Of a stretch of 64,000 nt of DNA, positions 5,535 through 64,000 are shown piece after piece. The stretch's first letter is position 1. Every line of letters begins with the position of its first letter. A program made the translations under genes and the position numbers. The notes under the pieces were generated by a model that had not been told where the DNA came from, searched no databases, and saw only the letters and a program-made list of their open reading frames with translations. The DNA is from an uncultured Kiritimatiellota bacterium (GTDB lineage Bacteria > Verrucomicrobiota > Kiritimatiellia > RFP12 > DVOR01): assembly GCA_944391055.1 (NCBI GenBank), contig CALXSF010000004.1, positions 97,374-161,373 on the forward strand. The letters run 5' to 3'.

Positions 5535-7223
5535 TCACTTGGCGTCTTCGGTGACGCGCATGAGTTCCTCGACGGAGGTGAAGCCCGAGAAGACCTTGCG
5601 CCACCCGTCTTGGCGCAAGGTGGCCATGCCCTCCTCCATCGCGGCTTTGCGGATCTCGGCGGAGGAGTGGCGGCCGATGATGAGGCTGCCGATGCGCTCG
5701 GAGACGCCGAGCAGCTCGAAGATGGCGCCGCGGCCCTTGTAGCCGGTGTTGGCGCAGGCCTCGCAGCCGACGGGCGCGTAGACATGATCCTGCGGGGGGA
5801 GGTGGGGCTGATCCCACCAGCCGTCCTTGAGGGGGATTTCCTTGCGGCATTTGGGGCAAAGGCGCCGGGCGAGGCGTTGGGCGAGGACGCCGGCGACGGC
5901 GGAGGCCACGAGGAAGGGCTCGGCGCCCATGTCGATGAGGCGGGCGAAGGCGCCGGCGGCGTCGTTGGTGTGAAGGGTGGAGAAGACGAGGTGGCCGGTG
6001 AGCGAGGCGTTGATGGCAATCTCGGCGGTCTCGCCGTCGCGAATCTCGCCGACCATGATGATGTCCGGGTCTTGGCGGAGGAAGGCGCGGAGGGCGCGGG
6101 CGAAGGTGAGGCCGATGTCCGCGCGGACGAGGACTTGGTTGATCCCCTTCATCTCATACTCGATGGGGTCCTCGGCGGTCATGATGCGGACGTTGACCTT
6201 GTTGATTTCGTGCAGGAAGGCGTAGAGGCTCGTGGACTTCCCCGAGCCGGTGGGGCCGGTGACGAGGATGATGCCGTTGGGCCGGGTGATGAGCTTGTTG
6301 GTGAGGGCATAGTCGCGCTCGCTCATGCCAAGATCTTTGAGCTGGACGAAGTTGCCGGCCTTTTGGAGCAAACGCAGCGAGACGCTCTCGCCATAGGCGG
6401 TGGGGCAGGTGGAGACGCGGATGTCGATGTCCTCGCCGTTGAGGCGGATGCCGATGCGGCCGTCCATGGGCAGGCGCTTCTCGGCGATGTCGAGGTTGGC
6501 CATGACTTTGAGGCGCGAGATGATGGCGGCCTTGAGGCGATTGATCTGCGGGGGGACGTCGACCTTGTGCAGCATGCCGTCGATGCGATAACGGATCCGC
6601 AGCTCGTCCTCCATCGGCTCCACATGGATGTCCGTGGCGCCCTGGCGGTCGGCCTCGGCGATGATTTGGTTGACGAAGCGGACGATGGAGGCCTCCTGCC
6701 CCATCTCGTTCACGTCGATCTTCGAGATGTTGGCCTCCGTGTCAGAGACCTCGTAGCGCCCATCCTCGATCATCTTCTCGATGGCCTCGGCGCCGACGCC
6801 GTAATACTTCTTGATGGCCTTGTCGATTTCCTCGGAGGGCGCCAGCCGGATGCGGACGTGTTTGCCGCAGGCCAACCGGATGCCATCGGCGGCGGCGTTC
6901 ATGGGGTCGCTGAGGGCCACGACAAGCGTCTCCCCCTCGACGGCCAACGGCAGCGCATTGTATTGGTGGACGGCGCGGGCGGGCAGGAGGCGAAGCGCCT
7001 CGTCGGACGGGCGGGCCTTGGCAAGATCGACGTAGTCCAGTCCAAGCACCGGCGCGAGCTTCTCCAGGAAGTCCGCCTCGCGGGCCATCTCCAGCCTGGC
7101 CACCGCGGCGGGCAGCCCCTCGGCAAGGTCGGCGTTGAGTAAAATCTCGATCTGGGCGTCCTTGAAGAGGCCGGTCTTCTTGAGCAGGTTGGCCAGAAAG
7201 GTCTGTTGCGCGGTCATGGGCAC
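5535..7223 (-). CDS. gspE: type II secretion / type IV pilus assembly ATPase (GspE/PilB family)
   Basis: Walker A motif GPTGSGKST, the tetracysteine motif CPKC...CEAC, and a T2SSE N-terminal domain. 562 aa. Confidence 0.9.
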   Translation of the reverse strand: MPMTAQQTFLANLLKKTGLFKDAQIEILLNADLAEGLPAAVARLEMAREADFLEKLAPVLGLDYVDLAKARPSDEALRLLPARAVHQYNALPLAVEGETLVVALSDPMNAAADGIRLACGKHVRIRLAPSEEIDKAIKKYYGVGAEAIEKMIEDGRYEVSDTEANISKIDVNEMGQEASIVRFVNQIIAEADRQGATDIHVEPMEDELRIRYRIDGMLHKVDVPPQINRLKAAIISRLKVMANLDIAEKRLPMDGRIGIRLNGEDIDIRVSTCPTAYGESVSLRLLQKAGNFVQLKDLGMSERDYALTNKLITRPNGIILVTGPTGSGKSTSLYAFLHEINKVNVRIMTAEDPIEYEMKGINQVLVRADIGLTFARALRAFLRQDPDIIMVGEIRDGETAEIAINASLTGHLVFSTLHTNDAAGAFARLIDMGAEPFLVASAVAGVLAQRLARRLCPKCRKEIPLKDGWWDQPHLPPQDHVYAPVGCEACANTGYKGRGAIFELLGVSERIGSLIIGRHSSAEIRKAAMEEGMATLRQDGWRKVFSGFTSVEELMRVTEDAK

Positions 7224-56463: not shown

Positions 56464-57042
56464 TCAAACCGGCAACGCAGGCAAGGCGAATCTTCCCCTC
56501 CCCCACTCCATCAAAGCAGCGACGGAAGTATGAGAGGCGACGGGCTCGGTGGGATCCCAGATGAATTCCTTGTAGACGTTCCACGGGCTGTTGGAGAAGA
56601 GCTGCTGAACGCAGAGGTAGCCGTTGTAAAGGAACTTGGTGTAGGTGACCTGGCGGTTGCCGGCCATCTCCTTGTGGAAGACGCGCCGGCCGAGGCGGTC
56701 GTAGCCCATCGTAACGACCGTGTTCCCCTGCGTCCAGCGGATGGGGCGATTTTCGGCGTTGTATTCCACCGCCCATTCGCCCGTGTCGGTGAGCACCTTG
56801 GTCTGGTTGCCGTCGGCGTCGTATTCCGGCACGAAGGCGTCGATGGCGGTGTATTGGTTGAGCGCGTTGGCGGCGTACGCCCGCCCCTCGGCCACGGTGC
56901 GGTTGCCGATGTCGTCGTAAGCATACGTGAAGCCCTGCCCGGCGACAAACTGGTCACAGAAGTCATAGGCATAGGTCTCCGTCTTGGCAATTCCCGTGCG
57001 GCGGCCAAAACGTGGAGGCGTTGTCCGAATTGTGTATCGTAA
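56464..57042 (-). pseudogene. Rhs/YD-repeat core remnant (third, degraded copy) with no toxin tip
   Basis: YAYDDIGNRTVAEGRAYAANALNQYTAID...QGNTVVTMGYDRLGRR...KEFIWDPTEPVA is about 95% identical to the internal core of the two upstream Rhs genes, then diverges into a short unrelated tail. Confidence 0.7.
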
Positions 57043-57052
57043 CATTTGCCTC

Positions 57053-57580
57053 CTAAAGATAAGCACTATTAAAGCTAAGATTTTTCAACATCTTGACATA
57101 GGCTTCGAAGAACTCACGCAACTGGATTCGCTCATCCAAAAGTTGCTTGAGACGACGCCTCATGTTCTTAGACATTTTTACCCCATCGTTATAACATGCT
57201 ATTCTTTTTTCCACCGCAAATGGTTTTAAGAAGCCGTTTGTTACGAATGAGGCATCGCAATGTTCAGCAACATCAACGGCATTCCACAGTAGCGGGTAGA
57301 TATTGTCAAACGAGAGAGCCGGACAATATCGGGTTTTACACTGGAACGCAACACATGCGGGCTCTTTCCAGCCGCGCAAATACCAAGGTGTAAGGATGGG
57401 GCCTTTATACATTCTCTCTATTCGGAAACAATGATAATTTTCTGTGATATATAACGCATTAACCCAACAATCCAATGTATGCAACTCAACAAGAGGAGGA
57501 CTACCATCTTCGAGAGAAATGAGAGAAGACCATTTCCCCGAGAAAATAATCATTCGCGGAAATCCTAAACCCGGTTTCAT
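57053..57580 (-). CDS. Rhs-cassette small protein, paralog B of an unclassified Cys/His-motif family (candidate immunity protein for the 57582-58299 toxin tip)
   Basis: Low-GC. Start is 1 nt after the Rhs stop (TGAcATG). About 50% identical to the protein at 60241-60783, with the shared block GFPRM...LEDG...WVNAL.ITENYHCF...LTPWYLRGW..P.CVAFQCK..YCP.LSFDN.YPLLW. Confidence 0.5.
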   Translation of the reverse strand: MKPGLGFPRMIIFSGKWSSLISLEDGSPPLVELHTLDCWVNALYITENYHCFRIERMYKGPILTPWYLRGWKEPACVAFQCKTRYCPALSFDNIYPLLWNAVDVAEHCDASFVTNGFLKPFAVEKRIACYNDGVKMSKNMRRRLKQLLDERIQLREFFEAYVKMLKNLSFNSAYL

Positions 57581-57581
57581 G

Positions 57582-58299
57582 TCAATCAACACGTTTACAG
57601 TCCAAATATGTTTCGCTTGCCTCTCCGTCTTTCTCAAAGACGAGTTCTTCCACAACACGCAAAGAAGTGGAAATTTGAAATGCTTTCGCACCTGTGGAAT
57701 ATTGCAAATACCAAAGTTCATACCTTGTAAGTGTAAGTCTTGGGGAATTACCATGTATAAATGAATGTACTTGCGAAGACGTCTTCATTTCTCCACGGAT
57801 AGTCTGTCCATAGATGGGATTCAGGTTCCACGGCTGATTTTTAATCCAGTCGGGAATGTGTTTTCCAATGGCACTGTTTTGACGGATGAATTGATGGTGG
57901 ACATGTGTTCCAGGAGGGATCGAATACTGTTTACCATACCACCTCCGAGTGGCTCGCCACGTGTGGCTGCCAGTCTTCCAACACCCTTTGCCCAAGGTTG
58001 ACACCACCGATCGAAGAAGGGTTATGTCCGAAATTGCAATGCCAAGATTGAACGCACCCTGCACATAATGCCCATTGTAAAAGGCTTCATCCATGCCACG
58101 GATTGGGCCATAAACAGGAATCAACTCCTCAATCCCACTTACCGGAGGAGGCGCTGGTCTGTCCGGATCATAAAGGATGGATTCCGCCATGGCATTTGGC
58201 CCACCAAGTGTCGCCACGTCCAATCCCAAGATATCGTAAAGATAAAAACTATTCCCGCAAATCAGATAGAGGTTTCGCGAAAACTCCTCCTCCAGCGGG
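57582..58299 (-). other. Rhs C-terminal toxin domain 2 (unclassified; contains WKTGSHTWR...GTHVHHQF)
   Basis: Sequence diverges from Rhs copy 1 exactly after GRD; markedly lower GC. Confidence 0.6.
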
Positions 58300-60212
58300 T
58301 CTCTTCCGAGCCAGCGGCCATCGTTGGGGTTGTAATGGCGGTAGTTGTAGTAGACGAGGGCGAGGGCGTCGTCGTGGAACTCGGAGGAGAAGCGGAAAGG
58401 ATTGTCGGCGGCGCGGGAGCCGGTGGCGGCGACGGCGCCGAAGGGGGCGTAGTCGTAGTGGGCGACGGGCTCGTTGAAGGGGCCGACGGTGACGACGTCG
58501 GTCACGTTCTTGTTGCCGTCGTGGAGGAGGAAGGTGGCGCGTTTGGCGTTTTGGCGGAAGCAGAGGGGACGGGTCGCAACGGGCTCGGTGGGATCCCAAA
58601 TGAACTCCTTGTAGACGTTCCACGGGCTGTTGGAGAAGAGTTGCTGGACGCAGAGGTAGCCGTTGTAAAGGAACTTGGTGTAGGTGACCTGGCGGTTGCC
58701 TTCCATCTCTTTGTAGAAGACCCGCCGCCCCATGCGGTCAAAACCCATGGTGATGACTTTATTGCCCTGCGTCCAGCGGATGGGGCGGTTCTCGGCGTTG
58801 TATTCCACCGCCCATTCGCCCGTTTCCGTGAGCACCTTGGTCTGATTGCCGTCGGCGTCGTATTCCGGCTCGAAGGCGTCGATGGCGGTGTATTGGTTGA
58901 GCGCGTTGGCGGCGTACGCCCGCCCCTCGGCCACGGTGCGGTTGCCGATGTCGTCATAGGCATAGGAACGGGCGTCGGCGGAGGTCAACTGGTCGCGGAG
59001 GTCGTAGCCATACTGCTCGTCATTCTTGGAGACGCGGCGGCCGAGGAGGTCGTTGGCGTAGACATACGTGCTGAGGGCCGTCCCGTCGGGGAGGCTGTTG
59101 GTGACGGCGGTCAGCAGGTCGCGCCCCGGCTCATACGCCCATTCCGCCGTGAGGCCATTGGGATAGGTCAGCCTGGCCTTGAGGTCGGAGCCGGGCAGGT
59201 AGGCCCAGGCGAAGTTCCCGCCCTCGTTCATCGTGGCGAGGCGCCCGGTGGCGGGGTCGTAGCCCAAGGTCATCCGACGGCTGCCGCTCACGGAATAACC
59301 CGCGTCGCGCCCGTAGGCGTCGAAGTGGTGGGTGAGCGTCTTGGCGTACTCGCCCGTGATGGACTCCGTCTCCAGCTCGCCGTAGGCATTATAGCCAAAG
59401 GTGGTGGTGCCCACCGCGTCCGTCGCCTGCGCCTGACGGCCAAAGACGTCATAAACATAGCCCACCGCCGGCGTGCCGTCCGAGTACGTCTGCGACACAA
59501 GGTCGCCGTAGACATTGTAGGCGTAGGTTGTCACGTTGCCGCGCGCGTCCGTGCGCGTCGCCACCTGGCCAAGGTCGGTGAGCGTGTAGGCCACGCCATG
59601 GCCGTCGGCATACGTCTTCGAGAGCAAGGCCCCCGTGGCCTCATCGTAAGCCCACGTCGTCGAGTCGCCCTCGCCGGAAGCCTCGTCGCGGAAGGTCGTC
59701 ATGCCCACCTTCTGCCCGAACAGGTCATAATCATACACCACGGGATAGACGGCGCCACCCTCGTAGGTCTTGTTGCCGCGCACGTCGTATTCATAGACCG
59801 TCACGTTGCCAAGGGCGTTGGTGACGGCGCAGACGCGCCCCGCCTCGTCATAACCATAGGCCGTCGTCGCCCCCACGGCGTCCGTCACCGAGGCCAGGCG
59901 CCCGCGCGCGTCATACGCCCGCGCCGTCACGTTCCCGCGGCCGTCCGTCTCCGCCACCACGCGCAGATACTTGTCATAGGCCGTCGAGTTGGTCACGCAC
60001 GAAGCGCTCACCGTCTGCACCGTCACCCCATCGAGCGCCACCTCCACCGATGGGTTGCCCACCCCAGGGAAGGTCGTCGTCACCAGACCGAAGAGGGCAT
60101 TGGCGTAAGCATTGCACGAAACAACAATATCATTGCTGATATTGATCTCGCAATTGAGAAATCCTAATGTCGCTCTATAATCCCAAATATGAACTGTTCT
60201 TTGGATAAACAT
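57582..60212 (-). CDS. Rhs repeat protein, N-terminally truncated duplicate of the core, with a low-GC C-terminal toxin domain of unknown class
   Basis: YD repeats through to ...YNYRHYNPNDGRWLGRD, then a divergent 238-aa tip. The first 45 aa come from low-GC DNA. Confidence 0.8.
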   Translation of the reverse strand: MFIQRTVHIWDYRATLGFLNCEINISNDIVVSCNAYANALFGLVTTTFPGVGNPSVEVALDGVTVQTVSASCVTNSTAYDKYLRVVAETDGRGNVTARAYDARGRLASVTDAVGATTAYGYDEAGRVCAVTNALGNVTVYEYDVRGNKTYEGGAVYPVVYDYDLFGQKVGMTTFRDEASGEGDSTTWAYDEATGALLSKTYADGHGVAYTLTDLGQVATRTDARGNVTTYAYNVYGDLVSQTYSDGTPAVGYVYDVFGRQAQATDAVGTTTFGYNAYGELETESITGEYAKTLTHHFDAYGRDAGYSVSGSRRMTLGYDPATGRLATMNEGGNFAWAYLPGSDLKARLTYPNGLTAEWAYEPGRDLLTAVTNSLPDGTALSTYVYANDLLGRRVSKNDEQYGYDLRDQLTSADARSYAYDDIGNRTVAEGRAYAANALNQYTAIDAFEPEYDADGNQTKVLTETGEWAVEYNAENRPIRWTQGNKVITMGFDRMGRRVFYKEMEGNRQVTYTKFLYNGYLCVQQLFSNSPWNVYKEFIWDPTEPVATRPLCFRQNAKRATFLLHDGNKNVTDVVTVGPFNEPVAHYDYAPFGAVAATGSRAADNPFRFSSEFHDDALALVYYNYRHYNPNDGRWLGRDPLEEEFSRNLYLICGNSFYLYDILGLDVATLGGPNAMAESILYDPDRPAPPPVSGIEELIPVYGPIRGMDEAFYNGHYVQGAFNLGIAISDITLLRSVVSTLGKGCWKTGSHTWRATRRWYGKQYSIPPGTHVHHQFIRQNSAIGKHIPDWIKNQPWNLNPIYGQTIRGEMKTSSQVHSFIHGNSPRLTLTRYELWYLQYSTGAKAFQISTSLRVVEELVFEKDGEASETYLDCKRVD
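58299..60080 (-). repeat. 1.78-kb direct repeat A (Rhs core), near-identical to 61980-63761
   Basis: Long runs are identical with only scattered SNPs, for example the 59101-59160 stretch matches its counterpart near 62782-62841. Confidence 0.85.
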
Positions 60213-60240
60213 GATTAACGATTTAATTTAGTTGGGACCG

Positions 60241-60783
60241 TTACACTTGGGAGACATAGGGACTATTCATACTGTAATTTCTCACTATCTCAATATAATG
60301 AACGAAAAATTCTCGCAATGGTATCCGATTTTCAACCAACCCTTTGAGTTTTTTCTTCATTCGCTGCGACATCGGCCCACCATCCCCAAATCGGGCAATC
60401 CGAGATGTCGTTGTGAACTCGCCCAATTGATAAGCATTACATAGACTAATCGACACACATGACGCAATGTCAATAGCCCTCCATAAAAGAGGATAAACGT
60501 TATCAAACGAAAGCTGTGGACAATAACATGCCTTGCAGTGAAATGCCACACATGAAGGTTGGCACCAACCACGCAAATACCACGGTGTAAGATTTCTCCC
60601 TTTTTCCATCTTGATTATCTTGAAGCAATGATAGTTCTCTGTGATAAGCAACGCATTGACCCAATGTTTAAGCGTCGACACTGCAATCTGTGGCATTGCC
60701 CCATCTTCTAGCGTAACAACAGAGGCGAATGCCCCAGGGAAAACAACCATTCGCGGAAAACCAAACAGTGGTCTCATAATCAC
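60241..60783 (-). CDS. Rhs-cassette small protein, paralog A of the same Cys/His-motif family (possibly an orphan immunity gene)
   Basis: Low-GC; about 50% identical to 57053-57580. Confidence 0.5.
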   Translation of the reverse strand: MIMRPLFGFPRMVVFPGAFASVVTLEDGAMPQIAVSTLKHWVNALLITENYHCFKIIKMEKGRNLTPWYLRGWCQPSCVAFHCKACYCPQLSFDNVYPLLWRAIDIASCVSISLCNAYQLGEFTTTSRIARFGDGGPMSQRMKKKLKGLVENRIPLREFFVHYIEIVRNYSMNSPYVSQV

Positions 60784-60792
60784 TCCAAGCGT

Positions 60793-61404
60793 TTACAAAT
60801 TAGATAATTGATAACGCTCTTCAACTAAAATTGTTTTGAAGAATGTCCGTTTTGAAAAATGGTAACAAATCCGCCAAAGGCCCTCTTGAAAAAATGTTAC
60901 ATCTTGGGAAAATCGCACCTCCATCCCTGGCTCCAACAAGAAAATTGGTGCAACGCAAGAAACATTCCCTACTCTAACAAAAGGTTCCTTTAGAACCTCT
61001 GTTCGCAAAAAATGAATGTTGTAAAAGCCATGAAACCCAACCACTCCATCCGTCGCATAGATTCCTGCTTCGTTAAAACATCCCTCAGCATTCTCATCAA
61101 GTAAAGCCCAGCGTTTCTCTGTTACATTGTATTTCTCCACCGTAATCTCAACCGGAAGGGACGCGACATCAACAGAAACCCTGTTCTCATTTGAAAGAAT
61201 GACCCACACTGTAATTGGTTGACCGCACGAAACAATGCAAGACTTTTGACTAAAGCGACCTTGTAACAACAAATCATCAGCGGGAAAATCAATTTGCACG
61301 ATTCCCTCATCTATGTCTAAACTCGACAAACAAGAGAATTGTGACAACGCCATTATAAAAAGCCCACTTACCAATACATTTCTGAATAGACGTTCTCTTC
61401 CCAT
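60793..61404 (-). CDS. Rhs-cassette small protein with a signal-peptide/lipoprotein-like N-terminus (candidate immunity protein for the HExxH toxin tip)
   Basis: Low-GC; overlaps the Rhs stop. N-terminus LVSGLFIMALSQFSCLSS. Confidence 0.45.
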   Translation of the reverse strand: MGRERLFRNVLVSGLFIMALSQFSCLSSLDIDEGIVQIDFPADDLLLQGRFSQKSCIVSCGQPITVWVILSNENRVSVDVASLPVEITVEKYNVTEKRWALLDENAEGCFNEAGIYATDGVVGFHGFYNIHFLRTEVLKEPFVRVGNVSCVAPIFLLEPGMEVRFSQDVTFFQEGLWRICYHFSKRTFFKTILVEERYQLSNL

Positions 61405-61980
61405 TCCTGTTCACTCCCCATATTTTGTCCATGATTCGTTTCTTCGTCAAAAGTCAAATTCCGCTCATTTTGTCGGTCCCAAGCTGTTTTTCTCAACTCA
61501 TCTCGTTCTGTTTGCAACGATTTCAAGGCCTTGGCTTTTGCGCCGTCATATGTCGTTGCGCAAACACTTACCATAGGAAGCGAAGAACGCTTGTACGCAT
61601 TTAAATAGATGTTAATATGAGTTCTCTCATGTGCAAGTATCTGCCAAGACTGTTTGGCTTCTTCTGTCGCCCAACTTTTGTCTTCCAAAAAGTAAAAAAT
61701 CCATTTGGCCCGAGTAGCAATAGCCTGAACACAAATACAATCTGTATCACTGGAAACGATTGAGAAATCAATATCCGCCTCATTTATACTCATGTATGGT
61801 TGTGCCAAAACAGTTTCTGCCACACGGCCGTTTCGCGTTTCATACGATGGGATTGTTCCTTGAAAATCAGCCCACGTTATCTCTGATGCATACTCAAACT
61901 TTTTAAGTCCACGTCGATCATATTGCGAAAGGGGAGAATTATCAACGAACGAATAAAGATTGTCAGAATAATCTTCAACG
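61368..61980 (-). other. Rhs C-terminal toxin domain 1 (HExxH zinc-metallopeptidase-like)
   Basis: AHERTH motif; low GC. Confidence 0.6.
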
Positions 61981-64000
61981 TCTCTTCCAAGCCAGCGGCC
62001 GTCGAGGGGGTTGTAGTGGCGGTAGTTGTAGTAGACGAGAGCGAGGGCGTCGTCGTGGAACTCGGAGGAGAAGCGGAAGGGATTGTCGGCGGCGCGGGAG
62101 CCGGCGGCGGCGACGGCACCGAAGGGGGCGTAGTCGTAGTTGGCGACGGGCTCATTGAAGGGGCCGACGGTGACGACGTCGGTCACGTTCTTGTTGCCGT
62201 CGTGGAGGAGGAAGGTGGCGCGTTTGGCGTTTTGGCGGAAACAGAGGGGACGGGTCGCGACGGGCTCGGTGGGATCCCAGATGAATTCCTTGTAGACGTT
62301 CCACGGGCTGTTGGAGAAGAGCTGCTGGACGCAGAGGTAGCCGTTGTAAAGGAACTTGGTGTAGGTAATCTGGCGGTTGCCGGCCATCTCCTTGTGGAAG
62401 ACGCGCCGACCGAGGCGGTCGTAACCCATCGTGACGACCGTGTTCCCCTGCGTCCAGCGGATGGGGCGGTTCTCGGCGTTGTATTCCACCGCCCACACGC
62501 CCGTGTCGGTGAGCACCTTGGTCTGATTGCCGTCGGCGTCGTATTCCGGCTCGAAGGCGTCGATGGCGGTGTATTGGTTGAGGGCGTTGGCGGCGTACGC
62601 CCGCCCCTCGGCCACGGTGCGGTTGCCGATGTCGTCGTAAGCATAGGAACGGGCGTCGGCGGAGGTCAACTGGTCGCGGAAGTCGTAGCCATACTGCTCG
62701 TCATTCTTGGAGACACGGCGGCCGAGGAGGTCGTTGGCGTAGACATACGTGCTGAGAGTCGTCCCGTCGGGGAGGCTGTTGGTGACGGCGGTCAGCAGGT
62801 CGCGCCCCGGCTCATACGCCCATTCCACCGTGAGGCCGTTGGGATAGGTCAGCCTGGCCTTGAGGTCGGAGCCGGGCAGGTAGGCCCAGGCGAAGGCGCC
62901 GCCCTCGTTCATCGTGGCGAGGCGCCCGGTGGCGGGGTCGTAACCCAAGGTCATCCGACGGCTGCCGTTCACGGAATAGCCCGCGTCGCGCCCGTAGGCG
63001 TCGAAGTGATGCGTGAGCGTCTTGGCGTACTCGCCCGTGATGGACTCCGTCTCCAGCTCGCCGTAGGCATTATAGCCAAAGGTGGTGGTGCCCACCGCGT
63101 CCGTCGCCTGCGCCTGACGGCCAAAGACGTCATAAACATAGCCCACCGCCGGCGTGCCGTCCGAGTACGTCTGCGACACAAGGTCGCCGTAGACATTGTA
63201 GGCGTAGGTTGTCACGTTGCCGCGCGCGTCCGTGCGCGTCGCCACCTGGCCAAGGTCGGTGAGCGTGTAGGCCACGCCATGGCCGTCGGCATACGTCTTC
63301 GAGAGCAAGGCCCCCGTGGCCTCATCGTAAGCCCACGTCGTCGAGTCGCCCTCGCCGGAAGCCTCGTCGCGGAAGGTCGTCATGCCCACCTTCTGCCCGA
63401 ACAGGTCATAATCATACACCACGGGATAGACGGCGCCACCCTCGTAGGTCTTGTTGCCGCGCACGTCGTATTCATAGACCGTCACGTTGCCAAGGGCGTT
63501 GGTGACGGCGCAGACGCGCCCCGCCTCGTCATAACCATAGGCCGTCGTCGCCCCCACGGCGTCCGTCACCGAGGCCAGGCGCCCGCGCGCGTCATACGCC
63601 CGCGCCGTCACGTTCCCGCGGCCGTCCGTCTCCGCCACCACGCGCAGATACTTGTCATAGGCCGTCGAGTTGGTCACGCACGAAGCGCTCACCGTCTGCA
63701 CCGTCACCCCATCGAGCGCCACCTCCACCGATGGGTTGCCCACCCCAGGGAAGGTCGTCGTCACCGTCCGCCACGCGCCCTCCTCCTCAATCACCGTCTC
63801 CGTCTCATTTCCGCGCACGTCCGTGGACACCTGGCTCAGGCCCTCCGCGTCCACGCGCACCGACTGCGTCAGGTTCGAGACCGCGACGACCGTCTCCAGC
63901 CACGGCTCGCCGTCGACGAGGACATAGGCCGTCGCCGTCTCCCGCGGCAGACGCGCGCCTACCTGCTCGGAGACGCGGTCGCCCCACGCGTCGTAGACGT
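61368..64000 (-). CDS. Rhs repeat protein (3' end of the gene; N-terminus lies beyond the window) with an HExxH metallopeptidase-like C-terminal toxin domain
   Basis: Frame is open to the window edge with YD repeats (YDAWGDRVSEQ...). The core ends ...RWLGRD, then a low-GC tip containing QILAHERTHINIY. Confidence 0.85.
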   Translation of the reverse strand, partial: VYDAWGDRVSEQVGARLPRETATAYVLVDGEPWLETVVAVSNLTQSVRVDAEGLSQVSTDVRGNETETVIEEEGAWRTVTTTFPGVGNPSVEVALDGVTVQTVSASCVTNSTAYDKYLRVVAETDGRGNVTARAYDARGRLASVTDAVGATTAYGYDEAGRVCAVTNALGNVTVYEYDVRGNKTYEGGAVYPVVYDYDLFGQKVGMTTFRDEASGEGDSTTWAYDEATGALLSKTYADGHGVAYTLTDLGQVATRTDARGNVTTYAYNVYGDLVSQTYSDGTPAVGYVYDVFGRQAQATDAVGTTTFGYNAYGELETESITGEYAKTLTHHFDAYGRDAGYSVNGSRRMTLGYDPATGRLATMNEGGAFAWAYLPGSDLKARLTYPNGLTVEWAYEPGRDLLTAVTNSLPDGTTLSTYVYANDLLGRRVSKNDEQYGYDFRDQLTSADARSYAYDDIGNRTVAEGRAYAANALNQYTAIDAFEPEYDADGNQTKVLTDTGVWAVEYNAENRPIRWTQGNTVVTMGYDRLGRRVFHKEMAGNRQITYTKFLYNGYLCVQQLFSNSPWNVYKEFIWDPTEPVATRPLCFRQNAKRATFLLHDGNKNVTDVVTVGPFNEPVANYDYAPFGAVAAAGSRAADNPFRFSSEFHDDALALVYYNYRHYNPLDGRWLGRDVEDYSDNLYSFVDNSPLSQYDRRGLKKFEYASEITWADFQGTIPSYETRNGRVAETVLAQPYMSINEADIDFSIVSSDTDCICVQAIATRAKWIFYFLEDKSWATEEAKQSWQILAHERTHINIYLNAYKRSSLPMVSVCATTYDGAKAKALKSLQTERDELRKTAWDRQNERNLTFDEETNHGQNMGSEQEWEENVYSEMYW
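61980..63761 (-). repeat. 1.78-kb direct repeat B (Rhs core), near-identical to 58299-60080
   Basis: See repeat A; constant offset of 3681 nt. Confidence 0.85.

Follow-up and report, generated by a model that had tools for sequence, protein, structure and literature searches.

A probable Rhs polymorphic-toxin array with displaced orphan modules in an uncultured Kiritimatiellia bacterium

The C-terminal displacement model of Rhs loci was set out by Jackson et al. 2009 (PMC2935791), and orphan rhs-CT/rhsI modules were described by Poole et al. 2011 (PMC3150448). In the enterobacterial rhs loci of these reports, a full Rhs gene is followed by partial cores, each carrying a different tip and a small gene; GC-rich cores contrast with AT-rich tips, homology stops where the core ends, and core copies recombine with each other. 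The same traits are found in a locus at positions 56464 to 64000 of a 64,000-nucleotide stretch of contig CALXSF010000004.1 (the whole stretch is referred to below as the window). This locus very likely represents an Rhs (YD-repeat) polymorphic-toxin array with displaced orphan modules, carried by a very GC-rich uncultured Kiritimatiellia bacterium.

The locus also departs from the enterobacterial loci in several respects. Its host, with ~75% GC, belongs to the Kiritimatiellia of the Planctomycetes-Verrucomicrobia-Chlamydiae (PVC) group and is not a proteobacterium. No PAAR, VgrG or type VI secretion system (T6SS) context was found in the available sequence, and the N-terminus of the full Rhs protein is signal-like instead. 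An extra orphan immunity gene is present, the tip and immunity families are undescribed, and the variable part starts ~25 residues ahead of the DxxGL motif that precedes each tip domain. A further point of comparison is WapA of Bacillus subtilis, a Sec-dependent, cell-wall-anchored YD-repeat toxin of a monoderm bacterium. WapA resembles the protein studied here in its Rhs/YD shell, the polymorphic toxin at its C-terminus, the immunity gene that follows it and the lack of a T6SS, and has an N-terminal export signal where the present protein has a signal-like segment; unlike WapA, the present protein comes from a presumably diderm host, and no wall-binding repeats were detected in it.

Layout and base composition of the array

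All array genes and core copies are co-oriented on the minus strand, as detailed in Table 1. An earlier reading of the window (the original prediction) had described a minus-strand series consisting of an Rhs gene with an HExxH tip, two small genes, a truncated second Rhs copy with a different tip, one further small gene and a core fragment. Each of these elements was recovered at or near the coordinates it had given. The full gene, Rhs1, ends in tip CT1 and is followed by the small genes imm1 and X1; the orphan Rhs2 ends in tip CT2 and is followed by X2 and by fragment C. The genes are tightly packed: the Rhs1 stop is overlapped by the imm1 start (37 nt), imm1 and X1 are 9 nt apart, X1 and Rhs2 28 nt apart, the Rhs2 stop and X2 start are separated by 1 nt, and the fragment C open reading frame (ORF) overlaps the X2 stop. 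The likely X1 start is the ATG at 60777, which has GGAG ahead of it. Plus-strand ORFs of up to 699 aa run antisense to the Rhs cores (for example at 58068-60167 of the window) and were regarded as stop-poor GC-rich artefacts, not genes. No tRNA gene or Rfam family was detected in the locus, which thus gives no sign of integrase-type island insertion.

Self-BLAST aligned core copies A and B at 96.9% identity across 1786 nt, in agreement with the claim that the copies are nearly identical; core C (437 nt) is 92.9% identical to A and 88.6% identical to B. Homology between A and B breaks precisely after ...YNP(L/N)DGRWLGRD (61980/58299), and the C-terminal domains beyond this point are unrelated. 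Each tip has its own DxxGL-type variant of the (P)xxxxDPxGL autoproteolysis motif (SPLSQYDRRGL in CT1, NSFYLYDILGL in CT2), at which cleavage is predicted. Since the variable part begins before this motif, each tip supplies its own cleavage site. Membership of the Rhs core family was clear from profile searches: PF05593 (RHS_repeat) matched Rhs1 (E=1e-28), Rhs2 (2e-29) and fragment C (4e-5), TIGR01643 matched as well, and the Rhs-associated core TIGR03696 (cut-off 32.5 bits) scored 51.4 bits in each of Rhs1 and Rhs2.

Base composition changes sharply along the array. The neighboring host gene recJ has 76% GC with a GC content at third codon positions (GC3) of 0.92, and positions 1-56432 of the window have 70% GC overall. 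The repeated cores have 62-65.5% GC (65.5% in core A) and a GC3 of 0.88, slightly below the ~70% originally ascribed to them. In comparison, GC is 40.8% in CT1, 40.2% in imm1, 43.3% in X1, 46.7% in CT2, 42.0% in X2 and 38% in leader B, the AT-rich leader of Rhs2, and the GC3 of the tips and small genes is 0.36-0.45. The tips, small genes and leaders are therefore far AT-richer than the host (38-47% GC against ~75%), as had been predicted for the tips and small-gene blocks. The complete Rhs1 gene, available in an independent ENA scaffold (L001:3813-10037), contains a GC gradient within a single gene, from 73-75% in the N-terminal two-thirds through ~65% in the 3' core to ~41% in the tip, which suggests that the 3' core was itself imported or converted along with the cassettes.

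Table 1 Features of the Rhs array in the window
Feature	Position	Strand	Basis
Rhs1, 3' part	61368..64000	minus	ORF; RHS_repeat and TIGR03696 matches; N-terminus outside window
Core copy A, repeated 3' part of YD shell	61980..63765	minus	self-BLAST
Tip CT1 (HExxH)	61368..61979	minus	own core end SPLSQYDRRGL to ~61905, then 178-aa domain
imm1, putative CT1 immunity protein, 203 aa	60793..61404	minus	ORF; CT1/imm1 linkage in L028, L029
X1, putative orphan paralogue of CT2 immunity protein, 178-180 aa	60241..60783	minus	53% identity to X2
Rhs2 orphan, 876 aa (leader + core B + CT2)	57582..60212	minus	ORF; RHS/TIGR03696 matches; self-BLAST
Rhs2 44-aa leader (leader B), AT-rich	60085..60212	minus	38% GC
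Core copy B	58299..60084	minus	self-BLAST vs core A
Tip CT2	57582..58298	minus	own core end NSFYLYDILGL to ~58221, then 212-aa domain
X2, putative CT2 immunity protein, 175 aa	57053..57580	minus	ORF; CT2/X linkage in L005, L006, L007, L009
Fragment C ORF, putative third-orphan relic	56464..57066	minus	ORF; self-BLAST
Core copy C	56537..56973	minus	self-BLAST

Searches with the Rhs core recovered 15 related loci in metagenome-assembled genomes (MAGs) of Kiritimatiellia and 'Lentisphaeraceae', with 44-90% identity in tblastn segments, and three further, distant core matches in other phyla. In most of the 15 loci, core copies are stacked two to four deep. The tips behind the cores in these loci number more than 20, are unrelated to one another and include neither CT1 nor CT2, and the post-core segments have a GC content of 0.36-0.49 compared with 0.44-0.67 for the cores. 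The possibility that the low-GC segments are conserved across related genomes, which had been named as a ground for abandoning the prediction, was not borne out, as the tips differ throughout the 15 loci. The recJ and GreA-like genes that flank the array were not found beside the Rhs loci of the relatives.

Toxin tips and candidate immunity proteins

The CT1 domain contains AHERTH...NHG, in which the HExxH and the downstream HG are invariant in three homologues. CT1 (16.4 bits, E=0.01) and two homologues, P0008 and P0009 (11.9 and 20.6 bits), matched DUF922 (PF06037), all under the cut-off of 27, and in each case the match fell on the HExxH half of the profile (positions 75-153). A tip from a related Rhs locus (L022) passed the DUF922 threshold at 34.2 bits. 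DUF922 has been predicted to be a zincin-like metallopeptidase family (PMC3650047). CT1 resembles it in the HExxH, the downstream HG and the repeated match to the C-terminal half of the profile, and differs in falling under the gathering threshold and in being a toxin tip fused to an Rhs core, not a stand-alone secreted protein. CT1 may accordingly be described, as far as its sequence goes, as a divergent DUF922-like HExxH zincin. Several unrelated HExxH tips were also observed in related arrays (L012, L015, L018, L021 and L022), the one in L022, with a near-identical copy in L021, being a bona fide DUF922 member; zincin-like tips seem to be a recurrent choice in the Kiritimatiellia lineage.

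CT1 homologues with 56-58% identity in L028 and L029 are directly trailed by imm1 homologues (33-42% identity) with the same gene overlap. All three imm1 proteins open with a charged n-region and a hydrophobic core followed by a Cys, which suggests that imm1 is an exported lipoprotein; imm1 itself had no Pfam or NCBIfam match. Given this signal- or lipoprotein-like N-terminus, the target of CT1 probably lies in the cell envelope.

The family of CT2 is a large one. Few relatives came from a word-indexed search, but an exhaustive profile search recovered 595 representative clusters (at 50% identity). The CT2 domain is C-terminal in every hit among the matches listed, on proteins of 99-3590 aa, and the scaffolds that carry it include teneurin-like, SpvB/TcdB-Rhs and DUF6531-Rhs proteins. 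Across 74 CT2-family sequences, H108, H109, N132 and H152 are invariant, and H156 and the N128-Q-P-W131 motif are nearly so. None of the 74 matched Pfam over the CT2 domain, the family is also absent from NCBIfam, and the only HNH-family Pfam match in it was one faint match to AHH. An AlphaFold2 model of CT2 built from a deep alignment reached a predicted local distance difference test score (pLDDT) of 85 and placed the HH pair on a strand, N132 ahead of the next strand and H152/H156 on the following helix. Comparison of this model with PDB structures gave no convincing match, PDB sequence searches with CT1, CT2 and their profiles gave nothing past the end of the Rhs core, and hhalign assigned a probability of 0.1 to the alignment of the CT2 family with the colicin E9 DNase (E9 sequence verified against 1bxi_B).

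The leading guess for CT2, drawn from the arrangement HH...N...H(x3)H on a predicted beta-beta-alpha element, is a His-Me-finger nuclease of HNH/AHH-like type. The likeness to AHH (PF14412) and to the colicin E9 DNase lies in the invariant HH on a strand, the Asn before the second strand and the H-x3-H on a helix; in addition, the putative partner of CT2 appears to be a cytoplasmic immunity protein, and the CT2 domain ends many polymorphic-toxin scaffolds. Against this stand the lack of a significant sequence, profile or structural match between CT2 and any HNH family, and the presence of a long N-terminal helical hairpin with conserved IPxWGSGR and SDVFLVK motifs, which has no HNH counterpart. 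The earlier statement that the cassettes hold no recognizable toxin or immunity family was thus partly revised: CT1 is DUF922/zincin-like and CT2 falls in a large tip family, while that family is unannotated and imm1 and the X proteins are without a known domain.

The X1 and X2 proteins, whose homology was overlooked in the original prediction, are 53% identical (E=1e-72), and Pfam and NCBIfam scans found no known domain in either. Their family is tiny: 5.8 billion proteins yielded no more than 7 clusters of it. X2 is Cys-rich and has no signal peptide. The homologues recovered in L005, L006, L007 and L009 each directly follow a CT2-type tip, and the CT2/X pairs co-diverge: the toxins are 65-72% identical and the X proteins 53-68%, with the same pair of loci (L005/L006) closest for both. 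Because X follows CT2-type tips and co-diverges with them, X2 is the cognate immunity candidate for CT2. The small proteins that accompany distant CT2-family toxins are unrelated ones, a common situation among polymorphic toxins.

X1 occupies a different position, sitting after imm1 and not after a CT2-type tip. In L028, CT1-imm1 occurs without any X, and in L029 it is followed by a truncated X2-like remnant. For these reasons X1 is best read as a candidate orphan immunity gene next to the CT1 cassette, not as a second CT1 partner. The proposal that the small genes form immunity modules with the tips consequently found support for imm1 and X2, which behave so in linkage and co-divergence, whereas X1 is read as an orphan. 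Two neighborhoods of CT2/X pairs may be mentioned here. Downstream of the pair in L005 (L005:1809-5415) lie six small genes without known domains, several with signal peptides or membrane helices; they form a possible orphan-immunity island. In L006, an NCBI MAG contig, an FRG-domain protein (PF08867; L006:1939-2814) comes right after the CT2/X pair and a short Rhs fragment.

Fragment C begins with its own leader, with a perfect AGGAGG motif and a start codon (ATG) at 57045. In the window as in L001, the fragment breaks off within the core at 56537, and its reading frame continues into host DNA that lies 104 nt from recJ. In L007 and L030, the same leader C runs into a full 3' core, a third tip (CT3) and imm3. 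Because the core is cut at 56537 and the same leader continues into a complete module in these loci, fragment C is taken to be what a deletion left of a third orphan, one still intact in other strains. The degraded third core fragment originally described is therefore present, with the refinement that it is truncated at both ends and represents an orphan relic. The third cassette itself (L007:1485-3238, L009:1-1103) encodes the Gly-rich CT3 and, after it, imm3, a putative immunity protein of 100 aa for which two membrane helices are predicted; CT3 could be pore-forming. A CT3 relative with 34% identity was noted in L024.

Strain comparison and rival explanations

Over 13.2 kb, the locus in L001, an independent 164-kb scaffold, is 99.9% identical to that of the window. 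The window and L001 differ at 11 positions in these 13.2 kb. All 11 lie in core A (62583-63012; L001:8393-8822), and the L001 base equals the core B base in 11 of 11. These differences mark either a gene-conversion tract between core copies or the mixing of repeat reads by an assembler. Contigs from other strains show the cassettes in other orders. In L002 the order is CT2-X2-leaderC-core-CT1-imm1-X1-leaderB, and the core passes just once from C to A type, within positions 111-143 of the 437-nt repeat; in L031 leader C is joined to CT2, and in L003 a B-type core lies ahead of CT1. An excised circle of the array was considered for L002 and rejected as the sole explanation, as L002 is 0.6-0.7% divergent from the window, compared with 0.08% for L001, and so comes from another strain. 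Any single contig might be a short-read mis-join, but the pattern across independent samples and assemblers fits continuing recombination among the core repeats.

Under the proposed mechanism, Rhs1 would be the active gene, made up of a YD shell, a core and the exchangeable tip CT1. CT1 would act in the envelope of the target cell, and imm1 would neutralize it in the periplasm of the producer. The cassettes would have come as AT-rich foreign DNA attached to a piece of core, and integration by homologous recombination in the core would push the previous tip downstream, which is C-terminal displacement. Rhs2-CT2 with its putatively cytoplasmic X2, and fragment C, would be the leftovers of earlier tips, and X1 would have travelled with the CT1-imm1 cassette or been left beside it. 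In view of the apparent conversion tract and the different cassette orders in other strains, the repeated cores may still recombine, so that orphans could be swapped back onto the full-length gene. Displacement by horizontally acquired toxin/immunity modules, as originally proposed, is supported by the composition, the core breakpoints, the variable tips and the tip-immunity linkage.

Several points weigh against this interpretation. The DUF922 score of CT1 is below threshold (16.4 bits against 27). The proposed export route of Rhs1 rests on a hydrophobic N-terminal segment that has no charged n-region. Toxicity and immunity are read from gene order and co-variation only. Both the permuted orders and the conversion tract were seen in metagenome assemblies of short reads, where repeats can be mis-joined or their reads mixed. 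Carried to its end, this last point would make the stacked copies themselves an artefact, with one Rhs gene that has strain-variable tips mis-assembled as a tandem array. The sequence is indeed metagenome-derived, most other contigs with these cassettes end inside the repeated core, and chimeric joins would be possible through an identical stretch of 31-85 nt. An artefact of this kind is nevertheless barely credible. The same order is present in L001, so that the architecture is not a one-off assembly product; core copies A, B and C are unequal in length and diverge by 3-11% in sequence; the AT-rich leader at the start of each orphan is unique to it; fragment C runs into unique host sequence next to recJ; and the same stacked design appears in relatives from other projects. 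It is also very improbable that the AT-rich segments are ordinary conserved parts of Rhs genes, AT-rich for functional reasons and not imported. Every tip in every relative is AT-rich, so a shared constraint such as silencing or translation rate is possible, but the tips are unrelated to each other across the 15 loci, immunity genes and non-coding leaders are equally AT-rich, GC3 falls from 0.88 to ~0.4 inside one reading frame, and identical cassettes occur at different positions in different strains.

Two further alternatives concern the small genes and the orphans. X1 and X2 might serve recombination or mobility, promoting cassette capture from their place at the 5' edge of each orphan, since each X gene of the window lies immediately upstream of an orphan core, two copies occur in one array, and the tiny family is confined to these arrays and has no known domain. 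This role was judged improbable because X always comes after a CT2-type tip (within 1-90 nt or overlapping) in the other loci and co-diverges with it, the gene after X in L005 is not an Rhs fragment, CT1-imm1 in L028 is followed by another orphan without any X, and the pairing of distant CT2-family toxins with unrelated small proteins is what immunity genes usually show. The orphans, for their part, might not be a silent reserve but be expressed independently and act inside the cell like toxin-antitoxin modules, as was reported for a Salmonella orphan Rhs (PMC7043789). Rhs2 has an ATG start, fragment C has its ribosome-binding motif and start codon, and the short gaps (1-28 nt) or overlaps between co-oriented genes make co-transcription possible; conversely, no Shine-Dalgarno sequence is visible ahead of Rhs2, and Rhs2, without the N-terminal 1200 aa or the signal-like segment, would not be exportable. 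Such expression has some chance of being real but is on the whole unlikely, and it would be compatible with displaced orphan modules in a polymorphic-toxin array, not exclusive of them.

Export context and biological meaning

Complete Rhs1 in L001 is 2074 aa long. Its first 1200 aa matched only RHS repeats, even at E<=10, and contained no PAAR, DUF6531 or SpvB/TcdB domain. The N-terminus is a hydrophobic signal- or anchor-like segment that is conserved in the L011 and L017 orthologues. Nothing but a divergent GreA-like gene and a small hydrophobic ORF was found upstream of Rhs1 in L001; of the 10 largest genes elsewhere in the window, one encodes a type II secretion system-type ATPase (50 kb away) and the others have housekeeping roles. 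A PAAR/VgrG/T6SS context, for which a check upstream had been proposed, was thus found neither in Rhs1, nor in its flanks, nor among these 10 genes, and the N-terminus is signal-like instead; export of Rhs1 is probably Sec-initiated. The ATPase is of the GspE/PilB type (T2SSE, E=4e-135; window 5535-7223, minus strand) and is the sole secretion-related gene among the large genes of the window. The hydrophobic ORF (L001:3333-3599), on the same strand directly upstream of Rhs1, encodes a very hydrophobic protein of 88 aa, perhaps up to 178 aa, in which no known domain was recognized. This ORF may assist Rhs1 as an accessory or in export, or may be spurious.

A literature search for Kiritimatiellae together with Rhs found no papers, and to our knowledge no interbacterial weaponry has been described for this lineage of the PVC group. 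The displacement layout is an already known mechanism, and the architecture alone confirms it and changes little; the toxin and immunity families are undescribed. The CT2-like tip family with its invariant HH-N-H is missing from domain databases, and the locus offers two clean candidate toxin/immunity pairs for experiments. A bolder view, held only tentatively, is that gut Kiritimatiellia practice a T6SS-independent, Sec-launched form of Rhs antagonism, and that CT2 is the first examined member of a widespread toxin domain that is not a conventional HNH nuclease and is paired with a previously unseen Cys-rich immunity fold in X. The occurrence of the same cassettes in differing orders, together with the conversion tract, among natural strains would show displacement and reshuffling caught in action. 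Rhs orphan arrays, apparently without a T6SS, occur in uncultured Kiritimatiellia. All related MAGs examined share the design, which points to an important role of interbacterial antagonism in this poorly known lineage.

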